Sequence record: ON528745
Length of the DNA stretch: 64,000 bases
Direction: 5' to 3' (one strand)
Source: Shigella phage ESH35
The number at the start of each line of letters is the position of its first letter. Position 1 is the stretch's first letter. Positions 51,679 to 62,209 of the stretch are shown one piece after another. The notes under the pieces are model-generated. The model made no database searches. It saw only the letters and a program-made list of their open reading frames with translations, and was not told the origin of the DNA. Both the position numbers and the translations under genes were made by a program.

Positions 51679-52335
51679 TTATTTAGCCCTTCCTAATATT
51701 CTGGCCGCCTGAGAACATATTGATTCAAGGCGGTCATTACTTATATGATCATTTCTATACCAGTACATGGTTATTGTTCCAGCATAGATGTTATCCAAAT
51801 TAAAATATGGACAACTGTACATGTAGTTTATTTCGGGAGTAGGCTTTTTAGTTGGTAAAAAAGCAAATTTTGAGTTGGAATAATAATGACGTCCATTTAA
51901 ATGAACTGTATATTCATCCATAGTTTTATCAACAGGATATCCTCCAAGTGATTTTTCACTTATTGTTGAAGGTAATTTTCCTTCATATGCTATAACATCA
52001 ACAAAATAGTTTAAGTTTTTAGGGCGGAAAGAATACACCGCACTAAAGTCTGCCTCAGATGATATGTGAACTATCTGGAGTTGTTCCAGGGCGACAGATT
52101 CAAAGCGTGCATTTCTTTCCTTTTCAATAATTTCACTGTATGTTTCATACTTTGATTGCTTATAGTACTCAAAGAAACTATCTCCCCTATACCAAACAAT
52201 CGCCATCATAAATAAAAGAATTACGACAGCTACCCGGGAAGCAAGAACTTTCCCGGTAGCGTTATCTTTGAACAAGCGATCTAGAACACCAAATAGAATA
52301 TCAGAGGGCGAAAATGATATTCTAGGTGCTGCCAT
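51679..52335 (-). CDS. t: holin T
   Basis: 218 aa as in T4; one N-proximal transmembrane segment and large C-terminal domain; convergent with asiA. Confidence 0.9.
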   Translation of the reverse strand: MAAPRISFSPSDILFGVLDRLFKDNATGKVLASRVAVVILLFMMAIVWYRGDSFFEYYKQSKYETYSEIIEKERNARFESVALEQLQIVHISSEADFSAVYSFRPKNLNYFVDVIAYEGKLPSTISEKSLGGYPVDKTMDEYTVHLNGRHYYSNSKFAFLPTKKPTPEINYMYSCPYFNLDNIYAGTITMYWYRNDHISNDRLESICSQAARILGRAK

Positions 52336-52365: not shown

Positions 52366-53142
52366 TTATACTCTTGGACCATATATTGCTCCAACGTTTT
52401 GCCATGTCGGTGTAGACCCTATGACGGCATAACCAGCAGCTCCGCCATCGTATTCAGATCCTTGACCACGAATATTACATCTACCTCCTGCGGAGCCAAC
52501 TTCGCCACCGCCACCGCCGCTATAGATACCGTTCACAGACCCTGCGCCAGGCGCAGAAATAGTACCAGCAGTTGCTCCTGATTGCATATCAATAGATCCG
52601 CCCGGTGCGCCAAACGGACGCCCGCCGCCGCCGCCAAAAGTCAATCTCATTTGTGAAAAAGGAGAATAATATCCGCCGCCGCCACCGCCGCCACCTCCAG
52701 CAATAGCTCCGCCATTATTAATTCTTAGTCTCCCACCAATATCGTTTTGAATACAATGACCTCCAGCTGAGCCAGGACTATTGCTACCGCCATTACCGCC
52801 ACGTCCATACATCGTTACGCCGTGTATATTCAACTGAACATATTCATTCGGTGTATCTCCATACATGAAGAATAAAGGAACATCTTTAGAATATGATACT
52901 AAATCTCCAGTGATATTAAACACTATAGGTGCACTACCTGCCTCAAAACATCTATCTCGGAACCATTGACCATTGAAGTTATGGTCTGCTCCAAGTGTGT
53001 GAATTACTTCAACAGATCGACCTATCATATTACTCATCCAAAACGGAATTCCCATTCTCAATCTCTGTGCGGCACCACCCATCCAAGGATCTCCAGTCTG
53101 TACCCTTGCAGACCATCCTACCCACGGTCCTGTTACTGCCAT
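52366..53142 (-). CDS. 38: tail-fibre adhesin gp38, T2-type with glycine-rich motifs
   Basis: 258 aa from ATG after GGAGG SD; poly-Gly runs between variable segments. Confidence 0.85.
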
Positions 53143-53154
53143 ATAAACCTCCAA

Positions 53155-53168
53155 GGGGCCGAAGCCCC
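53155..53168. other. GC-rich hairpin between genes 37 and 38
   Basis: GGGGC-cgaa-GCCCC read on + strand. Confidence 0.4.
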
Positions 53169-53173
53169 TCTTA

Positions 53174-56100
53174 TTATTTTAACAATGATTTAACTAATGC
53201 TTTAAGTTCTTCAATTTCTGATTTAAGTTCCGCAATTTCTGCAGTATGCTCATTGATTGCAGCTGTATTTAAACCAATTACACCGTTATAGTTCAAACGA
53301 AGTAAAGCTTCGCCATCAGGGTCACCTTCAACTAATTCAGGCAAAATAGCTTGAACTTCTTGAGCTATCAAACCGGCGTTTGGTTCCCATTTCTGATTAC
53401 CTTCTTCATCTAGGCCTCGCTTCTGCATATAAGTGTAACCATTAATTTTTGAAAGCTTCTCAGAAGCATTTTCAAATTTAACGAGGTCTTTTTTAACACG
53501 AATATCAGAACGGACATAAACATCACGGACAAACGTTGAATAACTATCATTTGCCTGAACGAGATGCCCATGAGAAACGATAGCTCTTCCAACTTCTGTC
53601 CAAAAAGCACCGGTTGAATCCCAAAGCCCAGGATGAGATTGATAGCCTGCTCCCCAGTTTGCAATATGTATACCATTGGCAACCATATTGATTCGGCCGT
53701 CACCGCCATGAACTAACCCAGTGTCATTATCACCAATAACAACGCATGCGCCTGTCCATACAGGGTCACCTCCACCAGCTGATAATCTTACTCCAGCTTT
53801 AACCATGTCAGGAACGTACATGTTTCCATTATGGTGGAATTCGAAGATAGCTTGCGGATCGCTAGCATTTTCCTGATTACCTACACGGATAATACCTTGT
53901 GCCCAGTTATTAGTAATGCGTCGCATACCGAAATCAACACCAGATACGTACCCTTCATTAGTAATAACAGATTTTCCTTTAATAATAGGATAATAGCAGT
54001 CATTGCCGACACTACCAAAATCCACAAATATAGGAGCTTCTTGATGCCATTGGTTTCCCCAGTCACCAGCTTGATGCGCAGTCCATTGAGTCCCATTTAT
54101 ATGGAGACGATCGCAGTTAAAGTTAAATGTTGCAGCACCTTGTGGAATCAGCGCGATTTCACCAATAGAGTTAATTTGCACAGCCCCATTGGTTTTATAG
54201 TTGTAGAATGATACGGTATTATCAGCGCCGCCTTTACCAATATACCATTGATTTTCTCCACCGCCAGTAGAAAGAAGGTAGCTTGCATCAGTCGCTGAAG
54301 GCGCAGCTAAGTTAATAGCATCAGAATCTCTTCTAATAATCAACTTGCCGGTCATCGTGTCGCCTTCTTTCGAAACACGAGTCGCAATAGCATCGCGAAT
54401 ATTAGTTACGTCGCCAGCTGAAGTAAACGTTTTCCAGATATCAGACCAGATATTACCATTGCGAGCAATAGTAGCTTCACCGCCGCCAACAGAAACGTTA
54501 TCTGGGAAGTTAACAGTACCGTCTTGATTAAAACGAGACGTATGGCCTTGTGAACCATCTTCTTTCAGATGATGAATAACGAATGTACCCGAATTAATTT
54601 CAGTACCTAAAGACCAAACGGATTTACCGTTTAGAAACTTCTGTTTAACAATAGGATAATATTTGCTTACAGCATCGTCATCGATTTCCTGGAAAACAGG
54701 AGCTGCTTGAGCATATTGAATATCATAACCACCAGCGCCTGCACCATGGCCAACAAATTTAATATAGCCGTTCGCAGTGATCGTATTGTATTTTGATTGT
54801 AAATCTGGAATAGTAACTTTACCAGTATCTAAAGCCATACTAAACGGGCGAAGTGGACCGATATCGCCATCTTTGCCTTCGCCATAAGCAGTTGGAATAA
54901 TATGAAGACTTTCTTCTGAACGTCTAAAAATGGCTCCATAATCTGCGTTCCAAATACGAAGAGCATTCACTGCTCCAGATGAAATTTCACCTGTTGTGTG
55001 AACTCCTCTATCTCCAGCAGTAACACCAGATGATTCAAATGAACCATTAACGTTCATTTCTACTTCACCTGTTGTAAGTCTTTGAATATAGCTCATCCAA
55101 CTAGTTGCATCAGAAATTTCCATGACATTTTTACGATTACCTACGCTAGGATTAGTAAACGTGTTACCCCACACGGAAATTGTCATATTATCAACTGAAC
55201 TACTACCAGTTGTGTTACCTCTAAACAACAGAGTAGATGCATTGTTGCGGCCGTCAATATTAACCGAACCACCAATAACATTAATATCACCTGGAGTAAC
55301 TAACAAACCGCCTTGAGTATTAATGTTTGTAGTACCCTTACCGCGGAAATAATGATGATAGTTACCGCCTTGGTAATATCCTAAAAGAGTTTGACCGTCA
55401 CCATACGCGTTATTATCATGGTAAGTAACAACAGTGGCCAAAGCATAGTTTTCTGTCGGTGGCGTTGTCATAAGAAGCCCATCTGGAGAATAAGCCATAA
55501 CCATTTTTCTAAGGCTTTGCGTTTCTCCTGGGCCATAGATGAAAGTTTTTGTTCCGTTGTTTACTGTATAGAAATATCCATCTTGATGCCATTTTAACCC
55601 AGTGTCATTATCACCAAGAGCAATTGAGGCAGTCCCTAATTCAGAATATCCTTTTGGACCGCCTGGGGTACCTATAGAAATAGAATGACCCGCTTTCAAC
55701 CCACCGGACCACGTAAACGACCAAAGATAGGCATCTAACCCGTCACCGGCGTACCAGGTTATCCCGTCGTTATCTTTAACTTCATGGAATATACCAGATC
55801 CTACGGCATTTCGCATAACACGGAGGTGGTTAATAGCCGTTTCGCTTTCTGCCAATGGAGTGTTATTTGCTAATGAATAGATATCATAATCGCCTGTCTT
55901 CTTCCCATTTGTAATAACTTTATCGGTCAGAATTTGTGGAGACGAAATAGATTTCCATGCTGATACTTCAGGTGAAGTAAATAGGCCACTGCCTGAAAAT
56001 GCATAAGTGCTTTCGCTACCAGCGGCGTAGTCTTGAACCCTGATATTAAGTACTTGTGTAGTTAAACCATCATTAGCCGGGGCATAAATGATTCCACGTT

Positions 56101-56488
56101 CGCGACTATTGCCATCGAAAAAACGAACATGCGCTGTACCTGAACTTTTTGTAATAAGTTCTCCGCCTTCAGTCATAATCTGCCCGGCGGCAATAATATC
56201 ACGAGTTACTCGAGCAATACCAGTTAAATTAAAATTACCTGTCTGAGTGAATGTGCCATTTAAAGTATAATCGCCAGTTTGGTTATAATTGCCTGTATGA
56301 ATAACATTCCCGTCAATATTACCGCCTTTAGCAAAACCCAGATCAATAATATTTCCTTGGTCATCTTTAGTAAAAAGTACACGGTCTTTTAAGTTTATAG
56401 CCAATTCACCTTCGGCTAATACTGAAGCGGCAGGACGTGCTCCTGCAGTTTTGCTTCTTTTAAATTGTATTTGTTTTAAAGTAGCCAT
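53174..56488 (-). CDS. 37: long tail fibre distal subunit with C-terminal intramolecular-chaperone-like domain
   Basis: 1104 aa; C-terminal SDIRVKKDL...coiled-coil segment. Confidence 0.9.
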
Positions 56489-56496
56489 AAGTCCTC

Positions 56497-57153
56497 TTAA
56501 TAATAGCCGAAATCTTGAACAGAATCCTTAATAACAATTTGGTCAAATCGTGGAACATGTGAGGGTTGAGATGCAGGATTCTGTGAAAAAAGGTTTGGCG
56601 CAGTTAAATTTCCTGTCATAGTGTCTCCAGAGCGTAATACCCTAGAGTTTGCGTTTGCTGTAACAATATTTATTGCTCCATCAACATAATCTTTCCGCGT
56701 AAGGTCATAATTATTTACTGGTGATAACGAAGTTACACGGATTTGTGATGCTTCAATTACGCCCTTTGAGCTAATATCTCCATTTCGTGTGTTAATTACT
56801 ACAGTTCTACCTGCTGTTCCTTGTGATGATTTAAAACCAATACCATACCACGAAACAATATCCATATTTGTAGTATCATACGTGGCACTATCACCAGGAC
56901 CAGCAAAAATACCATTATCGCCTGACCCTGCGCCAGGAACAGTCATTCCTTTATTAAAAATTACTTTATTTAAATAAGTACCACCATTAGCTTTAGAAAC
57001 GAAATCGTTATCTGCAGCTTGTGGTTTATTATATTCTGAATATATTTTAAATGATTTATAGAGTACATCGTCACCGGCTGGATTCAATGGAAAATTTCCT
57101 TGATGCCAAATGACAGAGCCTCCGGTTGTTGAACCTACTTTTAAATCAGCCAT
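56497..57153 (-). CDS. 36: long tail fibre distal connector
   Basis: 218 aa, between 35 and 37. Confidence 0.85.
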   Translation of the reverse strand: MADLKVGSTTGGSVIWHQGNFPLNPAGDDVLYKSFKIYSEYNKPQAADNDFVSKANGGTYLNKVIFNKGMTVPGAGSGDNGIFAGPGDSATYDTTNMDIVSWYGIGFKSSQGTAGRTVVINTRNGDISSKGVIEASQIRVTSLSPVNNYDLTRKDYVDGAINIVTANANSRVLRSGDTMTGNLTAPNLFSQNPASQPSHVPRFDQIVIKDSVQDFGYY

Positions 57154-57215: not shown

Positions 57216-58331
57216 TTAAACTTCTCTAAATTCTTGTCCAAACACTTTACCAGTTTTAGACGATGCTTGTGTAGGAAGTACCATTATATCTGGAGGTGAA
57301 GCAGATTCACAGACATAATTAACTCGAATACCATTGACGCCAAATTCTGCAGGTTTTGAAATTCCGCCATTTCTTGATACTTCAGAAAAACTTAAATTCC
57401 TCATGCCACCTTGACCTGCTTGTGCAGTTCTTTGTGCATATATCGTAAATCCTACTGCATTTTCAGGAACAACTACATAGTCTTCCTTTAATTCCCATGA
57501 CTCAGCTTGTCCAGTAAACTCAGCATGTGTTGAAGAAATATATCCATCCGATTCATCATAAAAACGGATAGATATATTTGTAGTTCCAAGAGCAAGTAAA
57601 TCGGCATCAGCATATAGTTGTGCTTTAAGATAAAGAACATCGCCAGGAATTAAATTGTAGTCAGAAAGTTTACTTATCGCGGATGAAGTTGGTAGACGTG
57701 CAATTTCGTTATTAGTTCCACCAACCGCTGACATAAACTGCTCAACGCTTTCATATGTTCTTCTTGGAAACCCGGTAGCTCCAACGTCTTCTAAACTGTC
57801 AAATACAACATCTAAAATAGTTTGATAATCATCTGTGCTTTTTCTATTACTCAGTTTAACATGTTCTAATGCAATAGCTCTTTTAGAAGAAGTATAAAAG
57901 GCAGCATATGATACGTCAAATCTTGACAATATAGAATCAGATGGAAAAGCAGACGTTCCCGCAACTCTTAGCCAAGATACTACCTCAGGAGGAAAATTAA
58001 CCTTTCCGCTAGTTAATATAGCAACAAGTCTATTATTCGTCAAAGAGTTCATGAAACTAACAAAAGCAGCAGATGTTGTATCATTTGAAGTAGAAAAAAC
58101 ATATGACTTACTATCAACCAATGCTCCTGTAGAAGGGTCAAAAACTCTTAAATGAAGACCTGCGTTAAATGTTTGACTTCCGATAGGATTATCCTGAAAT
58201 TTGACATATGGTCCTGCTGTAGAAAGCGGGCAAGAACCCGCTATACTTATTTTATATCTTACTGAATTACTTTCCGATAAAAATGGCGTTTGGACATATC
58301 CTTGTCCAAACTTTGCCATAAATTTTTCCAT
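57216..58331 (-). CDS. 35: long tail fibre hinge protein
   Basis: 371 aa, between 34 and 36. Confidence 0.85.
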   Translation of the reverse strand: MEKFMAKFGQGYVQTPFLSESNSVRYKISIAGSCPLSTAGPYVKFQDNPIGSQTFNAGLHLRVFDPSTGALVDSKSYVFSTSNDTTSAAFVSFMNSLTNNRLVAILTSGKVNFPPEVVSWLRVAGTSAFPSDSILSRFDVSYAAFYTSSKRAIALEHVKLSNRKSTDDYQTILDVVFDSLEDVGATGFPRRTYESVEQFMSAVGGTNNEIARLPTSSAISKLSDYNLIPGDVLYLKAQLYADADLLALGTTNISIRFYDESDGYISSTHAEFTGQAESWELKEDYVVVPENAVGFTIYAQRTAQAGQGGMRNLSFSEVSRNGGISKPAEFGVNGIRVNYVCESASPPDIMVLPTQASSKTGKVFGQEFREV

Positions 58332-58339
58332 AATACCTC

Positions 58340-61300
58340 TTATTCAACCCATTCAAATTTAACAGTTTTATTCACTGGGTCAGGAATAATGCGAACATTA
58401 CCAATTCGTAAGAAATCACGAATAGTAAGATTCCCCATTATAGCATTATCAGATGGTAAAGCACCAATATCAGATGGCTGAGGAGGGTTACCTCCATCAA
58501 ATACCTGAACAAAACTTGACCAAGAGTTTTTGGTTTTCTGCCATGTACGTGTCCAGCGAGTGGTACGCGCTTCTGGTGTCGTTGGATAAGTAATCCAATC
58601 TTGGTAAAGCGAATCAAGTGTGTTACCAAACTGAGTCAGTGTACCAGGAGATTTAACTTCTTCGCCACGTTCTAAATATGGAAGACCAGTCACTTCATTA
58701 GTTTTTTCAACCATTTTAAAATAACCCGGGAACTGGTTATAAGTGGCTGAATCATTAATATCGATTGACCAGAATCCTACAGTATCAGATGTTGGAGCAC
58801 GGGTATATAAATCAGAGGTTTTAGTACCCTGAGAACGAATTCTCGAGTTAACAGTCAAACCACCTGAATTTATAGTAGCACCTTTGGCAATGATTAAGCT
58901 TTCACCAATCGTTACTTGGCCAGATGCATTATTAATAGCTAATGGGCGTAATCCATTAAATCCACCAGTCTGATCACCCGATGCAGTAAGCATAAAATTC
59001 GTTACTGATCCATCATTGCGAACAATAAAACCGTAATTTCCGTTAATAGCACGGAAAGCATTTGCGCTTCGAGAAATAATTTCACCAGTTGCAGTGACTG
59101 AATTACCAAATGTTGCTACGCCATTTGCATTCAATGTTCCTGAAGCATTAACATTTATCGGTGTTACTGTACCGTTGATATTAAATGTTATATTTCCGGC
59201 TTTATTGCGCTGAGAATAAAAATGACTAGATGTTTCATCACTAACTTCAAATACGGTAGAACGTGTTGTATCTAATTCCCCACTAAATTGATTTCCCCAC
59301 ACTCTAACCGTCATCGTTTGGGCTGGGTTTGTTCCAGTTTGAGGTCCTTTCTCAAAAATCAATCGAGTTGCTGTTCCAGTATTAGAAATAGTTAATGTAC
59401 TATTTGCTGAAACTGATCCACCGAACGTAGCAGTACTAGATGATACAAGAGGGGCACTCAGATTCGTTTGTTGAGTTAAGGTTAGTGAACCATTAACCGT
59501 CTGCGCAATATCCCTACGAATGAACTGAGATGAATCTAGACCATCCAATAAATTACTATCTGCAGCTTTTGCTTTTAATGGCAAATAATTTGCTAATACA
59601 CGGTTTAATTCGTATGGTGATACTGCATAGCTATTTTTCTCGTATAGCTCTAAGTCCTGAGTAGAACCGGCTGTATCATTACCAACGAATGTAATTGAAC
59701 CAGATGAAGTTTTAACAAAGCCTCTTACTAGGGTAGTAGCTGCCCAAGTAGGTTCACTCTGCACAATCCATTTTAAATTTTTTGGAGATACAGCAGTATT
59801 TGCCGATGTTCCAGCAACAGTTTCGGTTTGTGTTGCAACTTTAATAACACCTTCTTGTTCTTCAGTAGATTTAGTACCTAAAAGCTTTTTAGGAGTTATT
59901 AAAACATTATCTAATTTTCCAGCAGCAGCTTCAACTTGTGTAGCCACACGAAGTGTACCACGTTGTGTCTCATTTGCTTCAAGAATATTAAGGGTATAAT
60001 GGTCCCAGAGAGTTCCTGATTCAACTAATCCAGATAGAGCAACAACAGAAGTACGATCAGTACTATTAAATCTAGTTTTAATTTTTAATGGTGTAGAGAT
60101 ACGAGTATCGTCGACGCCTGCGTCGAATTCAACTTGTGTAGCAATTTCAGCTATACCACTTAAACTTTCAGTTGCTCTACGGTCATTTAAAGTTTTAGGA
60201 GTGACTGCACGAGTATAATCAGTTCCTGTATTAACTTCACTTTGCGTAGCAATTTCAATTAATCCAATTCTTCCATCAGTTGATGTCTTTTTGTGTAACG
60301 TTTCTGGCGTTACAACAGCATTTGCCCATCCTTCTTGACTTTGACCAGCAATTACTTCACTTTCAACTGCTAAAATTACTGCACCCTGTTGAGTAGGCGT
60401 AGCTTTATACTGGTCCAAAGCTTTTGGCGAAACAACTAAATTATTAGTGTTTTTATTATAAACATTCGTACCATTTAATTCACGGCTAGAAGCTGGAGTA
60501 GCACCTGCAGTAGATACAAAAGTTACAATACCAGATAATGACTCAGAACCCTGGCGGGCTTGAAGCTTTTTAGGAGTGATGATTGTAGTATCATCGGTTC
60601 CTGCATTAGTTTCTTGCTGCGTAGCAATTTCAGCAACACCTCTGCGAGTTTCAGTAGCTGTTCTTTCATTCAGCTTTTTAGGAGTGATGATAAGGTCATC
60701 TGCAAAAGAGAATGTGGTATCCTGATTTACTTGCGCAGTTGTTGCTATTCTTGCGATACCTCTACGAGTTTCTGTAGCAGTACGGTTAGCTAATGTTTCT
60801 GGAGTAATTGCTAATTCTTTTTGTGGAGAATTTTCTAAATCGGCATTAGCTTGAGCTTGTGTAGCTAAAGCAATTACGCCTAATCTTGCTCTAGTAGAAT
60901 CATTCAAAGAGTCTACTCTTTCTACGGTTGGAACGTTTTGTTGTACAACCCAGTATTTTCCGTCAGAATCTTCTATATAAGCAAGTTGTAAAACTGGAAC
61001 ATAATTAGTTTCACCGTTAAAAACTAATTCTTGAACAGTCACCCATTCAGCTTCAGGTGGATACTCTGAACGTTTTGGGAATTGCAGCAATTGAACTGAA
61101 GAAGCAATTTTATCTTCACCGGCAGCTTTGATTTTAACTGTTTGTCCTTTTCTCATGTAATTCATGGAAATTTTAACAGTATCACCAACAGAAATATTAG
61201 TTGGAAGCTGAAGCTCAATTGTTTGAGTTGTTCCATTATTCGCACCAAATACCATAACTTCTTCATTTGGACGAATGTTTGAATTAGTTGTTATGATACG

Positions 61301-62209
61301 TAAACGTGCTTTACTGTCCCCGTCAAATAATCTCCATAATTTCTCATTATCGTCATACATCAAGAAACCGTCAATAGATGTACGGCCTTCAATAGAATGA
61401 GTTCCAACTTCTTGTACTGAAGTGGTTTCATCATATGTTGTAACAATTGTATGATAAAGCGGATTTAGTTTATCTAAATCAACGAAATTAATAATATCGC
61501 CATGATTAGCAAATCTTGGAAGTTTAACATTAATTGGTGCAGCAGAAGTAAATCTACGTACGATAAAATCATTAGATTGCGCCTGATAGAGACTTGCTGG
61601 TGTTACAACGACAGCTTCTCTACTATAATCGGCAACATACATTTGCCACAGACGATTACTAAAAATTAAAACTATCTGCGATTTTGGATGAGTCATTAGT
61701 ACTGAACGTACTTGTTGACCTCTGAAGTTTACAATACTTTGCACTGGAGCTACAATTAAAACTTGGTTAACTCCAGGTTTTCCTCCAATATCTTGGAGAA
61801 CGATAGTATCACCATCAATTGGAGAAGATGGCAAAGTAAATGTAATGTCATTACCCGCTGCGGTGTTAACCGAAATAGCTTCACCAGATTTTAATTGATA
61901 TGAACCAGATGAAACCGTAATCCAGTTAGCATCGGTACGTAATGCTCTCCAGCGTCCGCTATTAAAAGCTCCTGCCGGTTTTGGAATATCATTTATAGCA
62001 GCCCAAAAGCTGTTATCATAAATGATTACAAAATCTTTTAAATATCCACGAGTTGGATCGTATTGTTGAACTGTGTTTTCTTGAATTAAGTAATCAACGT
62101 TAACACCGTCAGTTCCTACGGCACGATCAGCTAAAGCTACGTTGATTATTTTATCACCACCTGCGTCCAGACCGTCTTCTGCTCTGAACTTTCTTTTAAT
62201 CTCGGCCAT
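58340..62209 (-). CDS. 34: long tail fibre proximal subunit
   Basis: 1289 aa as in T4; internal repeat motifs. Confidence 0.93.
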   Translation of the reverse strand: MAEIKRKFRAEDGLDAGGDKIINVALADRAVGTDGVNVDYLIQENTVQQYDPTRGYLKDFVIIYDNSFWAAINDIPKPAGAFNSGRWRALRTDANWITVSSGSYQLKSGEAISVNTAAGNDITFTLPSSPIDGDTIVLQDIGGKPGVNQVLIVAPVQSIVNFRGQQVRSVLMTHPKSQIVLIFSNRLWQMYVADYSREAVVVTPASLYQAQSNDFIVRRFTSAAPINVKLPRFANHGDIINFVDLDKLNPLYHTIVTTYDETTSVQEVGTHSIEGRTSIDGFLMYDDNEKLWRLFDGDSKARLRIITTNSNIRPNEEVMVFGANNGTTQTIELQLPTNISVGDTVKISMNYMRKGQTVKIKAAGEDKIASSVQLLQFPKRSEYPPEAEWVTVQELVFNGETNYVPVLQLAYIEDSDGKYWVVQQNVPTVERVDSLNDSTRARLGVIALATQAQANADLENSPQKELAITPETLANRTATETRRGIARIATTAQVNQDTTFSFADDLIITPKKLNERTATETRRGVAEIATQQETNAGTDDTTIITPKKLQARQGSESLSGIVTFVSTAGATPASSRELNGTNVYNKNTNNLVVSPKALDQYKATPTQQGAVILAVESEVIAGQSQEGWANAVVTPETLHKKTSTDGRIGLIEIATQSEVNTGTDYTRAVTPKTLNDRRATESLSGIAEIATQVEFDAGVDDTRISTPLKIKTRFNSTDRTSVVALSGLVESGTLWDHYTLNILEANETQRGTLRVATQVEAAAGKLDNVLITPKKLLGTKSTEEQEGVIKVATQTETVAGTSANTAVSPKNLKWIVQSEPTWAATTLVRGFVKTSSGSITFVGNDTAGSTQDLELYEKNSYAVSPYELNRVLANYLPLKAKAADSNLLDGLDSSQFIRRDIAQTVNGSLTLTQQTNLSAPLVSSSTATFGGSVSANSTLTISNTGTATRLIFEKGPQTGTNPAQTMTVRVWGNQFSGELDTTRSTVFEVSDETSSHFYSQRNKAGNITFNINGTVTPINVNASGTLNANGVATFGNSVTATGEIISRSANAFRAINGNYGFIVRNDGSVTNFMLTASGDQTGGFNGLRPLAINNASGQVTIGESLIIAKGATINSGGLTVNSRIRSQGTKTSDLYTRAPTSDTVGFWSIDINDSATYNQFPGYFKMVEKTNEVTGLPYLERGEEVKSPGTLTQFGNTLDSLYQDWITYPTTPEARTTRWTRTWQKTKNSWSSFVQVFDGGNPPQPSDIGALPSDNAIMGNLTIRDFLRIGNVRIIPDPVNKTVKFEWVE

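Follow-up and report, generated by a model that had tools for sequence, protein, structure and literature searches.

Peptidase_S74 domains, as established by work on endosialidases, carry a serine at the domain start and a lysine five residues downstream that together form the catalytic dyad. A gp37 that ends in such a chaperone domain, paired with a gp38 adhesin, makes an ordinary T-even tail-fibre tip, which is already covered by Pfam models and by crystal structures (6F45, 9V85) and has been studied genetically for decades. In phage S16, gp37 sheds its last 113 residues by autocleavage, at a site reported as S^SD, and so exposes the docking surface for gp38 (PMC7917993), which inserts three conserved tryptophan "prongs" into gp37 (PMC6851490), and the gp37 proteins of T2 and T6 are proteolytically processed and then capped by gp38 (PMC3157838). 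With respect to host recognition, the adhesins of RB27 and other T6-like phages recognise Tsx, and PST, which differs from T6 at three residues, has gained recognition of OmpA (PMC3157838); deletion of tsx abolishes the infectivity of FL23 and FL44 (PMC12032242). For Shigella phage ESh35, both of whose proteins have been deposited, the published description gives the host range and reports no receptor (PMC9686686). We propose, with a probability of about 93%, that the ESh35 locus encodes a distal tail-fibre module composed of an S74-processed gp37 and a gp38 adhesin cap, the receptor of which is most likely Tsx.

Organization of the tail-fibre locus

In the window, by which we mean the entire 64,000-nucleotide stretch of ESh35 DNA that was analysed, gene 38 is positioned between gene 37 and the holin gene t, all three on the minus strand (Table 1), and the order g34-35-36-37-38-t is common to all the reference T-even phages compared (T2, T6, T4, S16, RB27 and FL23). 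The downstream neighbour of gene 38, gene t, closes the tail-fibre operon. The span flagged in the first-pass annotation, 52366-53700, comprises the whole of gp38 together with gp37 residues ~930-1104, and the sequences and coordinates given there proved correct when the ending of the 1104-residue gp37 and the 258 residues of gp38 were checked. The program-called open reading frame of gene 38 begins at a TTG (53154) four codons ahead of the ATG; we place the start at the ATG because a GGAGG Shine-Dalgarno sequence (53148-53152) lies 5 nt ahead of it, homologues begin with MAV and the Pfam Gp38_N profile aligns from residue 1. Between the gp37 stop codon and this Shine-Dalgarno sequence sits a stem-loop, and hairpins occur at the equivalent position in T2, T4, T6, S16 and RB5, with differing stem sequences. 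A search of the whole window for tRNAs and Rfam families found none.

Table 1. Features of the gene 37-38-t region, in positions of the window
Feature	Coordinates	Strand	Basis or remark
Gene t (holin)	51679-52335	-	PF11031 Phage_holin_T, E=5e-117
Gene 38, receptor-recognising adhesin, 258 aa	52366-53142	-	ATG at 53142, stop codon 52366-52368
gp38 aa 113-237, glycine-rich motifs and five variable segments, predicted receptor-specificity region	52432-52806	-	Conservation profile
gp38 aa 41-112, conserved linker and beta-helix scaffold	52807-53022	-	Homologue identity; 15-sequence alignment
gp38 aa 1-40, N-terminal attachment domain with W7, W20 and W35	53023-53142	-	Gp38_N
Intercistronic stem-loop, GAGGGGC(UUCG)GCCCCUU, 7-bp stem and UUCG loop	53153-53170	-	RNA folding
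Gene 37, long tail fibre distal subunit, 1104-aa precursor	53174-56488	-	Stop codon 53174-53176
gp37 aa 994-1104 (S994-K1104), Peptidase_S74 intramolecular chaperone domain	53177-53509	-	PF13884; predicted to be removed by autocleavage and missing from the virion
gp37 aa 994-1053, Pfam core of Peptidase_S74	53330-53509	-	PF13884
gp37 aa 913-993, distal beta-helical tip	53510-53752	-	Match to S16 gp37 in its crystal structure with gp38 (6F45_A)

The gp37 precursor and its chaperone domain

The gp37 protein belongs over its full length to phrog_1699 (E=0), and a protein cluster look-up found it to be 100% identical to URY15958.1 of ESh35. Pfam searches recovered a Gp34_trimer domain at residues 450-550 and, at the extreme C-terminus, after the beta-helical tip segment, a Peptidase_S74 domain that accounts for the last 111 of the 1104 residues and ends in a heptad-like helix. 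As the match to PF13884 (E=1e-12; model positions 1-57 of 58) scores 48.5 bits against a curated cut-off of 22, the profile search bears out the earlier suggestion that gp37 terminates in an intramolecular chaperone. The domain opens with the motif S994-D995-I-R-V-K999, a Ser-Asp pair with a lysine at +5, and an alignment of six gp37 proteins (from the window, T2, T6, S16, RB27 and FL23) shows S994, D995, R997 and K999 to be invariant; the Ser-Asp motif, the loss of which would have spoken against the first-pass annotation, is thus retained, and the remaining invariant S74 positions are likewise intact.

At the level of solved structures, the chaperone domain matches S16 gp37 (PDB 6F45_A) from end to end, with E=1.1e-34, and the match extends over residues 913-1104 with E=7e-44; taken alone, the domain also returns weak matches to the auto-processing domain of MYRF (7DC3, E~0.02) and to a phage fibre (8JOV). 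The endosialidase- and MYRF-type S74 proteins resemble gp37 in that the serine and the +5 lysine open a C-terminal domain situated behind a trimeric beta-helix, although the sequence similarity to them is only remote, and the predicted cleaved end of gp37 would serve to dock a second protein, the adhesin, and would not be the end of an enzyme.

By analogy with work on T2, S16, PP01, T6, RB27 and FL23, we infer that gp37 undergoes autocleavage. The tip ends in FVRDVYVR directly ahead of the Ser-Asp motif, and based on the alignment with the site reported for S16, the candidate scissile bond is R993^S994; cleavage may therefore fall one residue ahead of the Ser-Asp pair rather than at S994^D995. 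Residues 913-993 would then become the mature C-terminus of gp37 and the docking surface for gp38, as in the S16 complex.

Domain architecture of the gp38 adhesin

Two Pfam models cover nearly the whole of gp38, namely PF21721 (Gp38_N) on residues 1-40 (E=5e-20; 71.6 bits against a cut-off of 25; profile positions 1-40 of 40) and PF05268 (GP38) on residues 45-258 (E=1.5e-70; 237.9 bits against a cut-off of 25). The protein falls into phrog_2056, "host specificity" (E=1e-108), is 100% identical by protein cluster look-up to URY15957.1, the "receptor recognizing protein" of ESh35, and matches the receptor-binding domain of PP01 gp38 (PDB 9V85, E=1.2e-80) as well as, over its full length, S16 gp38 (PDB 6F45_D, E=1.6e-48). 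Homology to these two crystal structures settles the family of gp38, and the E-values of the Pfam and PDB matches (1e-12 to 1e-80) indicate that the family assignments of gp37 and gp38 are not due to chance.

The N-terminal domain of gp38 (residues 1-40) agrees with that of FL23 at 39 of 40 positions, with that of RB27 at 32 and with that of T6 at 20. When the same six phages are aligned, all of them have W7, W20 and W35, which probably correspond one-to-one to the tryptophans seen in the S16 structure. Residues 41-112, highly conserved in an alignment of 15 gp38 sequences, are identical to RB27 and FL23 at all 72 positions and to the crystallised PP01 receptor-binding domain at 71. The remainder of the protein is rich in glycine (34% of residues 113-258), with runs of nine (149-157), five (170-174) and five (209-213) glycines, and the glycine motifs are near-invariant among the 15 diverse sequences, whereas the segments at residues ~119-125, 158-169, 183-197, 202-209 and 218-232 are poorly conserved. 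This profile, together with the Pfam matches, agrees with the adhesin layout originally described, i.e. a conserved N-terminal part followed by glycine runs alternating with variable segments. By analogy with the solved homologues, gp38 is predicted to adopt a polyglycine-II sandwich fold, with one monomer bound per gp37 trimer (3:1).

Predicted receptor specificity

When the variable segments were aligned with those of other adhesins, the putative specificity region of gp38 (residues 113-237) was found to be identical to RB27 at 125 of 125 positions, to FL23 at 120 and to T6 at 117, as against 62 for T2, 60 for S16 and 66 for PP01; the identity to RB27 gp38 is 100% across residues 41-258. Given that RB27 has the identical specificity region, and FL23 and T6 nearly the same one, we propose as the most likely receptor of gp38 the nucleoside channel Tsx, and not the FadL/OmpF receptors of T2, whose gp38 is 48% identical to that of ESh35. 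The label of a T2-type receptor-binding module, given in the first-pass annotation, stands for the architecture and is refined for the specificity: as judged from the alignments, gp38 is T2-type in the former and T6/RB27-like in the latter. As the case of PST indicates that small changes in the variable segments can add receptors, secondary receptors on Shigella may also be used.

Alternative interpretations

The same considerations bear on an unlikely variant of our proposal, in which the architecture is as described and Shigella is productively recognised through OmpA, OmpC or an LPS component, either instead of Tsx or alongside it. Shigella was the host of isolation, and where the variable segments are T6-like, very few changes can be enough to extend recognition to OmpA or LPS, PST being an example (PMC3157838). 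Yet the identity of gp38 to RB27 across residues 41-258 means that its specificity domain has no substitution setting it apart from a phage whose assigned receptor is Tsx, FL23 and FL44 depend on Tsx despite five differences in the glycine-rich region, and the adhesins that bind FadL/OmpF (T2) and OmpC (S16, PP01) match gp38 in this region at only ~50% of positions. It is far less probable that the S74-like domain is kept uncleaved as a structural part of the mature fibre, with gp38 binding elsewhere or transiently. This idea draws on the fact that cleavage of the ESh35 protein is deduced from homology; the intact Ser/Lys motif and other invariant S74 positions, the documented cleavage of S16 and T2/T6 gp37 and the placement of gp38 in the 6F45 complex on the very end of gp37 that cleavage exposes all argue against it.

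Hardly credible, finally, is a reading in which gp38 is a non-structural assembly chaperone for gp37, as in T4, and gp37 itself binds the receptor, although gene 38 occupies the same position as T4 gene 38. The T4 protein belongs to phrog_105, "tail fiber assembly", which is absent from the matches of the ESh35 gp38, and a direct comparison of the two detected no similarity (BLASTP E=1.3), whereas the homology of gp38 to virion-borne adhesins of solved structure is full-length. A match to phrog_1121 (length 181) had raised the separate possibility that the N-terminal domain of gp38 is homologous to T4 gp38; this was rejected on the same phrog_105 assignment and lack of similarity. T4 gp37, for its part, has no S74 domain and carries Collar and His-x-His Phage_fiber repeats instead, while the Pfam profile of the ESh35 gp37 includes S74 and neither Collar nor Phage_fiber, so that the C-terminal receptor-binding domain of the T4 protein is missing. 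On this basis the arrangement is unlike that of T4, as had been claimed at the outset.

Relationship to other phages and variation at the gp37-gp38 interface

Among named relatives, RB27 (KM607000; gp38 AIT74612.1) has equal gene order and protein lengths (1104 and 258 residues) and a 100% identical chaperone domain; it differs at 8 positions in gp38 residues 1-32 and at 16 of the 62 positions that end the mature gp37 tip. Conversely, FL23/FL44 (PP400787) gp38, 96.9% identical to that of ESh35, shares its unusual N-domain variant, with 7 substitutions within residues 192-248 in FL23, and the FL23 gp37 differs at 1 of the 62 tip positions and by 4 substitutions in the chaperone domain. The RB27 and FL23 gp37 proteins are 92-97% identical to that of the window apart from mosaic patches, and the FL23 shaft is divergent, with 50% identity in residues 701-800. 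S16 (PDB 6F45), which binds Salmonella OmpC and has a shorter gp37 (749 aa), follows the same plan in both proteins: a beta-helical tip and an S74 domain with the motif SD-x-R-[IV]-K in gp37, and an N-terminal Trp domain, beta-helix and glycine-rich sandwich in gp38. Its chaperone domain (~56% identical) is closer to that of ESh35 than those of T2 or T6, and its gp38 is 49% identical overall. A terminal S74 domain bearing this motif is also found in the gp37 proteins of T2 (AP018813) and T6 (AP018814). The gp37 tip and chaperone domain of T6, the classical Tsx phage, represent another subtype (11-29% identity over the last 200 residues), as does its gp38 N-domain. In the close relative G28, the same two Pfam domains are already annotated.

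Compared with RB27, the DNA differences form exactly two clusters, one in the gp37 tip and the other in the gp38 N-domain, and the chaperone domain that separates them is identical. The N-variant concerned (W10, R13, Q15, D18, P19) is rare, FL23 being the phage in the sample that also carries it. One might posit that an FL23-like tip and this rare N-variant, set amid RB27-identical chaperone and specificity domains, form a co-adapted docking pair; if true, such a pair would reveal compatibility rules for adhesin swaps between fibres and aid host-range engineering. To examine this we extracted the tip, the chaperone domain, and the gp38 N- and C-domains of 22 phages from GenBank records, which were taken in place of a scan of viral contigs that had yielded only 13 loci, too small a number for statistics. 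In the RB27-type group one N-variant, SSAVVNTGQNWMGG, is paired with either version of the tip (in phiE142, 4E10, KMB40 and ESh32 versus GEP001), so that coupling between tip and N-domain is unsupported. The sole pattern is a coarse association of the VPGWIG N-type with YIR-SD tips (T2, T6, RB5), and we consider the docking-pair idea very doubtful.

Proposed maturation of the fibre tip

Returning to the module of a processed gp37 capped by gp38, we suggest that gp37 would be made as a 1104-residue precursor, the distal module of a Tequatrovirus long tail fibre of the T2/T6/S16 arrangement, in which the ~111-residue S74 domain would drive trimerisation and the folding of the beta-helical tip ahead of it. 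The domain would then cut itself at R-S994-D995-x-x-x-K999, with the serine as nucleophile and the lysine as base, leaving a hydrophobic gp37 tip exposed. On this tip a single gp38 is predicted to dock via its N-terminal helical domain, with W7, W20 and W35, while its C-terminal half would form the polyglycine-II sandwich whose variable loops may touch the outer-membrane receptor of the host, most likely Tsx.

Implications

As the system itself is well known, the practical value of these observations lies in annotation, the ESh35 gp37 being labelled "hypothetical protein" in GenBank. The refinement added is that a T2-type architecture appears here with a T6-type specificity, the receptor being predictable from sequence alone. 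ESh35 was a candidate in a therapeutic Shigella cocktail, and the predicted Tsx receptor matters when phages with different receptors are to be combined.

Organization of the tail-fiber operon

The minus strand of the window carries the terminal part of a T-even long-tail-fiber operon, g34-g35-g36-g37-g38-t, and the span singled out by the first-pass annotation (52366-53700), whose quoted peptide strings were found exactly in the window, comprises the entire gene 38 and the final ~175 codons of gene 37. The mechanical ORF of gene 38 begins at an in-frame TTG four codons 5' of the ATG, yielding 262 aa; based on the GGAGG 5 nt upstream, the alignment of Gp38_N from residue 1 and the MAV start of the homologs, the ATG at 53142 is most likely the true start. 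A similar upstream start of gp38 (MEKIMAV...) is annotated in the T6 record AP018814 (L002, 8711-8722). Immediately 5' of the gene 38 ribosome-binding site, between the Shine-Dalgarno sequence and the gp37 stop codon, we also observed a hairpin whose 7-bp stem is capped by a C(UUCG)G tetraloop. Hairpins are found at the equivalent position in T2, T4, T6, S16 and RB5 with differing stem sequences (AGAGCC-UACG-GGCUCU in S16; GGGGG-AAAU-GCCCCC in RB5), such that structure appears to be kept rather than sequence, irrespective of the type of gp38 downstream; the fold in its 50-nt context is only modestly better than that of shuffles (z=-1.9).

Features of the tail-fiber region of ESh35
Feature	Position	Strand	Remark
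g34	58340-62209	minus	
g35	57216-58331	minus	
g36	56497-57153	minus	
g37	53174-56488	minus	1104 aa; stop codon 53174-53176
Gp34_trimer domain	~54803-55237	minus	gp37 aa 418-562
gp37 tip patch	~53510-53700		last ~60 codons of the mature tip, differing from RB27
Hairpin	53153-53170	minus	
TTG extension of g38	53143-53154	minus	four codons
Shine-Dalgarno GGAGG	53148-53152	minus	precedes g38
g38	52366-53142	minus	258 aa counted from ATG
gp38 W10 codon	53113-53115		
gp38 N-domain patch	53023-53142		codons 1-32, differing from RB27
Holin gene t	51679-52335	minus	

The chaperone domain of gp37

The C-terminus of gp37, which had been likened to the auto-cleaving intramolecular chaperones of some phage fibers and endosialidases, indeed matches the Pfam Peptidase_S74 profile ("chaperone of endosialidase"; aa 994-1053, model positions 1-57 of 58) with 48.5 bits (E=1e-12) against a cut-off of 22 bits. 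The domain opens with S994-D995-I-R-V-K999, and in an alignment with RB27, FL23, S16, T2 and T6 the motif residues S, D, R and K, including the expected Ser-Asp pair, are invariant along with about 15 other positions. Matches to S74 were recovered at the equivalent site in gp37 of T2, T6 and S16, whereas the domain search of T4 gp37 yielded no S74 match but Collar and Phage_fiber repeats, in line with the proposed departure from the T4 arrangement. Residues 913-1104 align with the S16 gp37 fragment in the S16 gp37-gp38 complex (PDB 6F45; E=7e-44), and the last 120 residues alone recover the same chain (1e-34). Weaker matches of these residues were to a second phage fiber and to the auto-processing domain of MYRF, both of the S74 kind. 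In S16, autocleavage of the last 113 residues after trimerization, at DLNVS^SDRRIKK, reportedly exposes the gp38 docking surface (PMC7917993), and gp37 of T2 and T6 is described as being processed and then capped by gp38 (PMC3157838). By alignment with S16, the cut may fall in DVYVR^SDIRVKK, at R993^S994. Endosialidase precedent would place the cut after the serine.

In the shaft of gp37 we noted a Gp34_trimer domain (PF21446, E=2e-7), aligning with solved fragments of the proximal fiber protein gp34 (4UXE, 5NXF); this module is common to proximal and distal half-fibers and is also present in gp37 of T2, T6 and T4.

The gp38 adhesin and its predicted receptor

Profile searches with gp38 recovered Gp38_N (aa 1-40, E=5e-20) and GP38 (aa 45-258, E=1.5e-70), both far over their cut-offs, and phrog_2056 ("tail fiber protein; host specificity"). 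Its full length aligns with S16 gp38 (6F45_D, 1.6e-48), and from residue 37 on with the crystallized PP01 gp38 receptor-binding domain (9V85, 1.2e-80). It shows no similarity to T4 gp38 (E=1.3), whose family is the distinct phrog_105 ("tail fiber assembly"), arguing against a T4 chaperone-type protein. All six phages compared carry W7, W20 and W35, which by sequence correspond to the trio of tryptophan prongs reported in S16 (PMC6851490). The N-domain variant in the window has a fourth tryptophan, W10 ("PWVGWSA"), and also occurs in FL23 and, joined to different specificity domains, in three IMG/VR contigs (L010, L012, L014). The C-terminal part contains glycine runs of 9, 5 and 5 residues (34% glycine over aa 113-258); among 15 aligned diverse adhesins these motifs are near-invariant and part five poorly conserved segments (aa ~119-125, 158-169, 183-197, 202-209 and 218-232), bearing out the earlier description of poly-Gly runs between short variable segments. 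This is the GRM/HVS organization of Trojet et al. and Dunne et al. (PMC3157838, PMC12032242, PMC6851490).

The first-pass annotation had assigned a T2-type module setting host range; this stands for the architecture, an S74-bearing gp37 with an adhesin gp38, but not for the specificity, which is predicted to be T6-type. Residues 41-258 are 100% identical to RB27 gp38, and over the glycine-rich/variable region (aa 113-237) 120 of 125 positions are identical to FL23 and 117 to T6, as against 62 in T2, 60 in S16 and 66 in PP01. Since RB27 and the other phages with T6-like adhesins are stated to recognize Tsx (Trojet et al., PMC3157838), and FL23 and FL44 are tsx-dependent (Lutz et al., PMC12032242), we predict Tsx as the receptor. 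In phage PST very few substitutions suffice to add receptors (PMC3157838); the absence of any substitution relative to RB27 in the specificity region speaks against such a gain here.

Mosaic composition of the module

In the GenBank phage collection, identity over the 4.1-kb module is 95% with ESh32 and ESh34 and 92.5% with RB27, and the same arrangement recurs in hundreds of Tequatrovirus records. DNA differences from RB27 fall in two patches, in the gp37 tip and the gp38 N-domain, both FL23-like and flanking a chaperone domain identical to that of RB27; a comparison of 22 phages found no coupling between tip and N-domain variants inside the RB27-type group. In T6 the same Tsx-type specificity domain is found alongside a gp38 N-domain (20/40), a gp37 tip and an S74 subtype that are unrelated to those of the window (L002 5706-9508 versus 52366-53770), a combination that fits the known modular exchange at the tail-fiber locus; the boundary of the swap is located close to gp38 residue ~40-50. 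The window's chaperone domain is more similar to its counterpart in Salmonella phage S16 (~56%) than to the T2 and T6 domains (~25-30%).

Functional implications

Our analysis shows that both proteins belong to established families with conserved motifs, that they are homologous to proteins whose structures have been solved, and that the adhesin is identical in its specificity region to one with a known receptor. By analogy with the homologs, we propose that the chaperone domain would fold the trimeric gp37 tip and then excise itself, that one gp38 would dock via its tryptophan-bearing N-domain onto the exposed tip, and that its glycine-sandwich variable loops would bind Tsx, which would then set off the usual T-even baseplate cascade.

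The window's gp38 exactly matches ESh35 URY15957.1 ("receptor recognizing protein") and its gp37 URY15958.1 ("hypothetical protein"), entries located on a contig of 166,919 bp; the latter label is an annotation gap, not biology. Orthologs in NiC89, ESh32, T4_ev151 and G28 are also labeled "hypothetical protein" though clearly gp37. The gp37/gp38 module is already known, and the G28 record already annotates Peptidase_S74 and GP38 domains on the orthologs. For ESh35 (ON528745), a sewage Tequatrovirus, host range was reported but not the receptor (PMC9686686); the sole additions made here are the prediction of Tsx as this receptor and the annotation of the "hypothetical" gp37.
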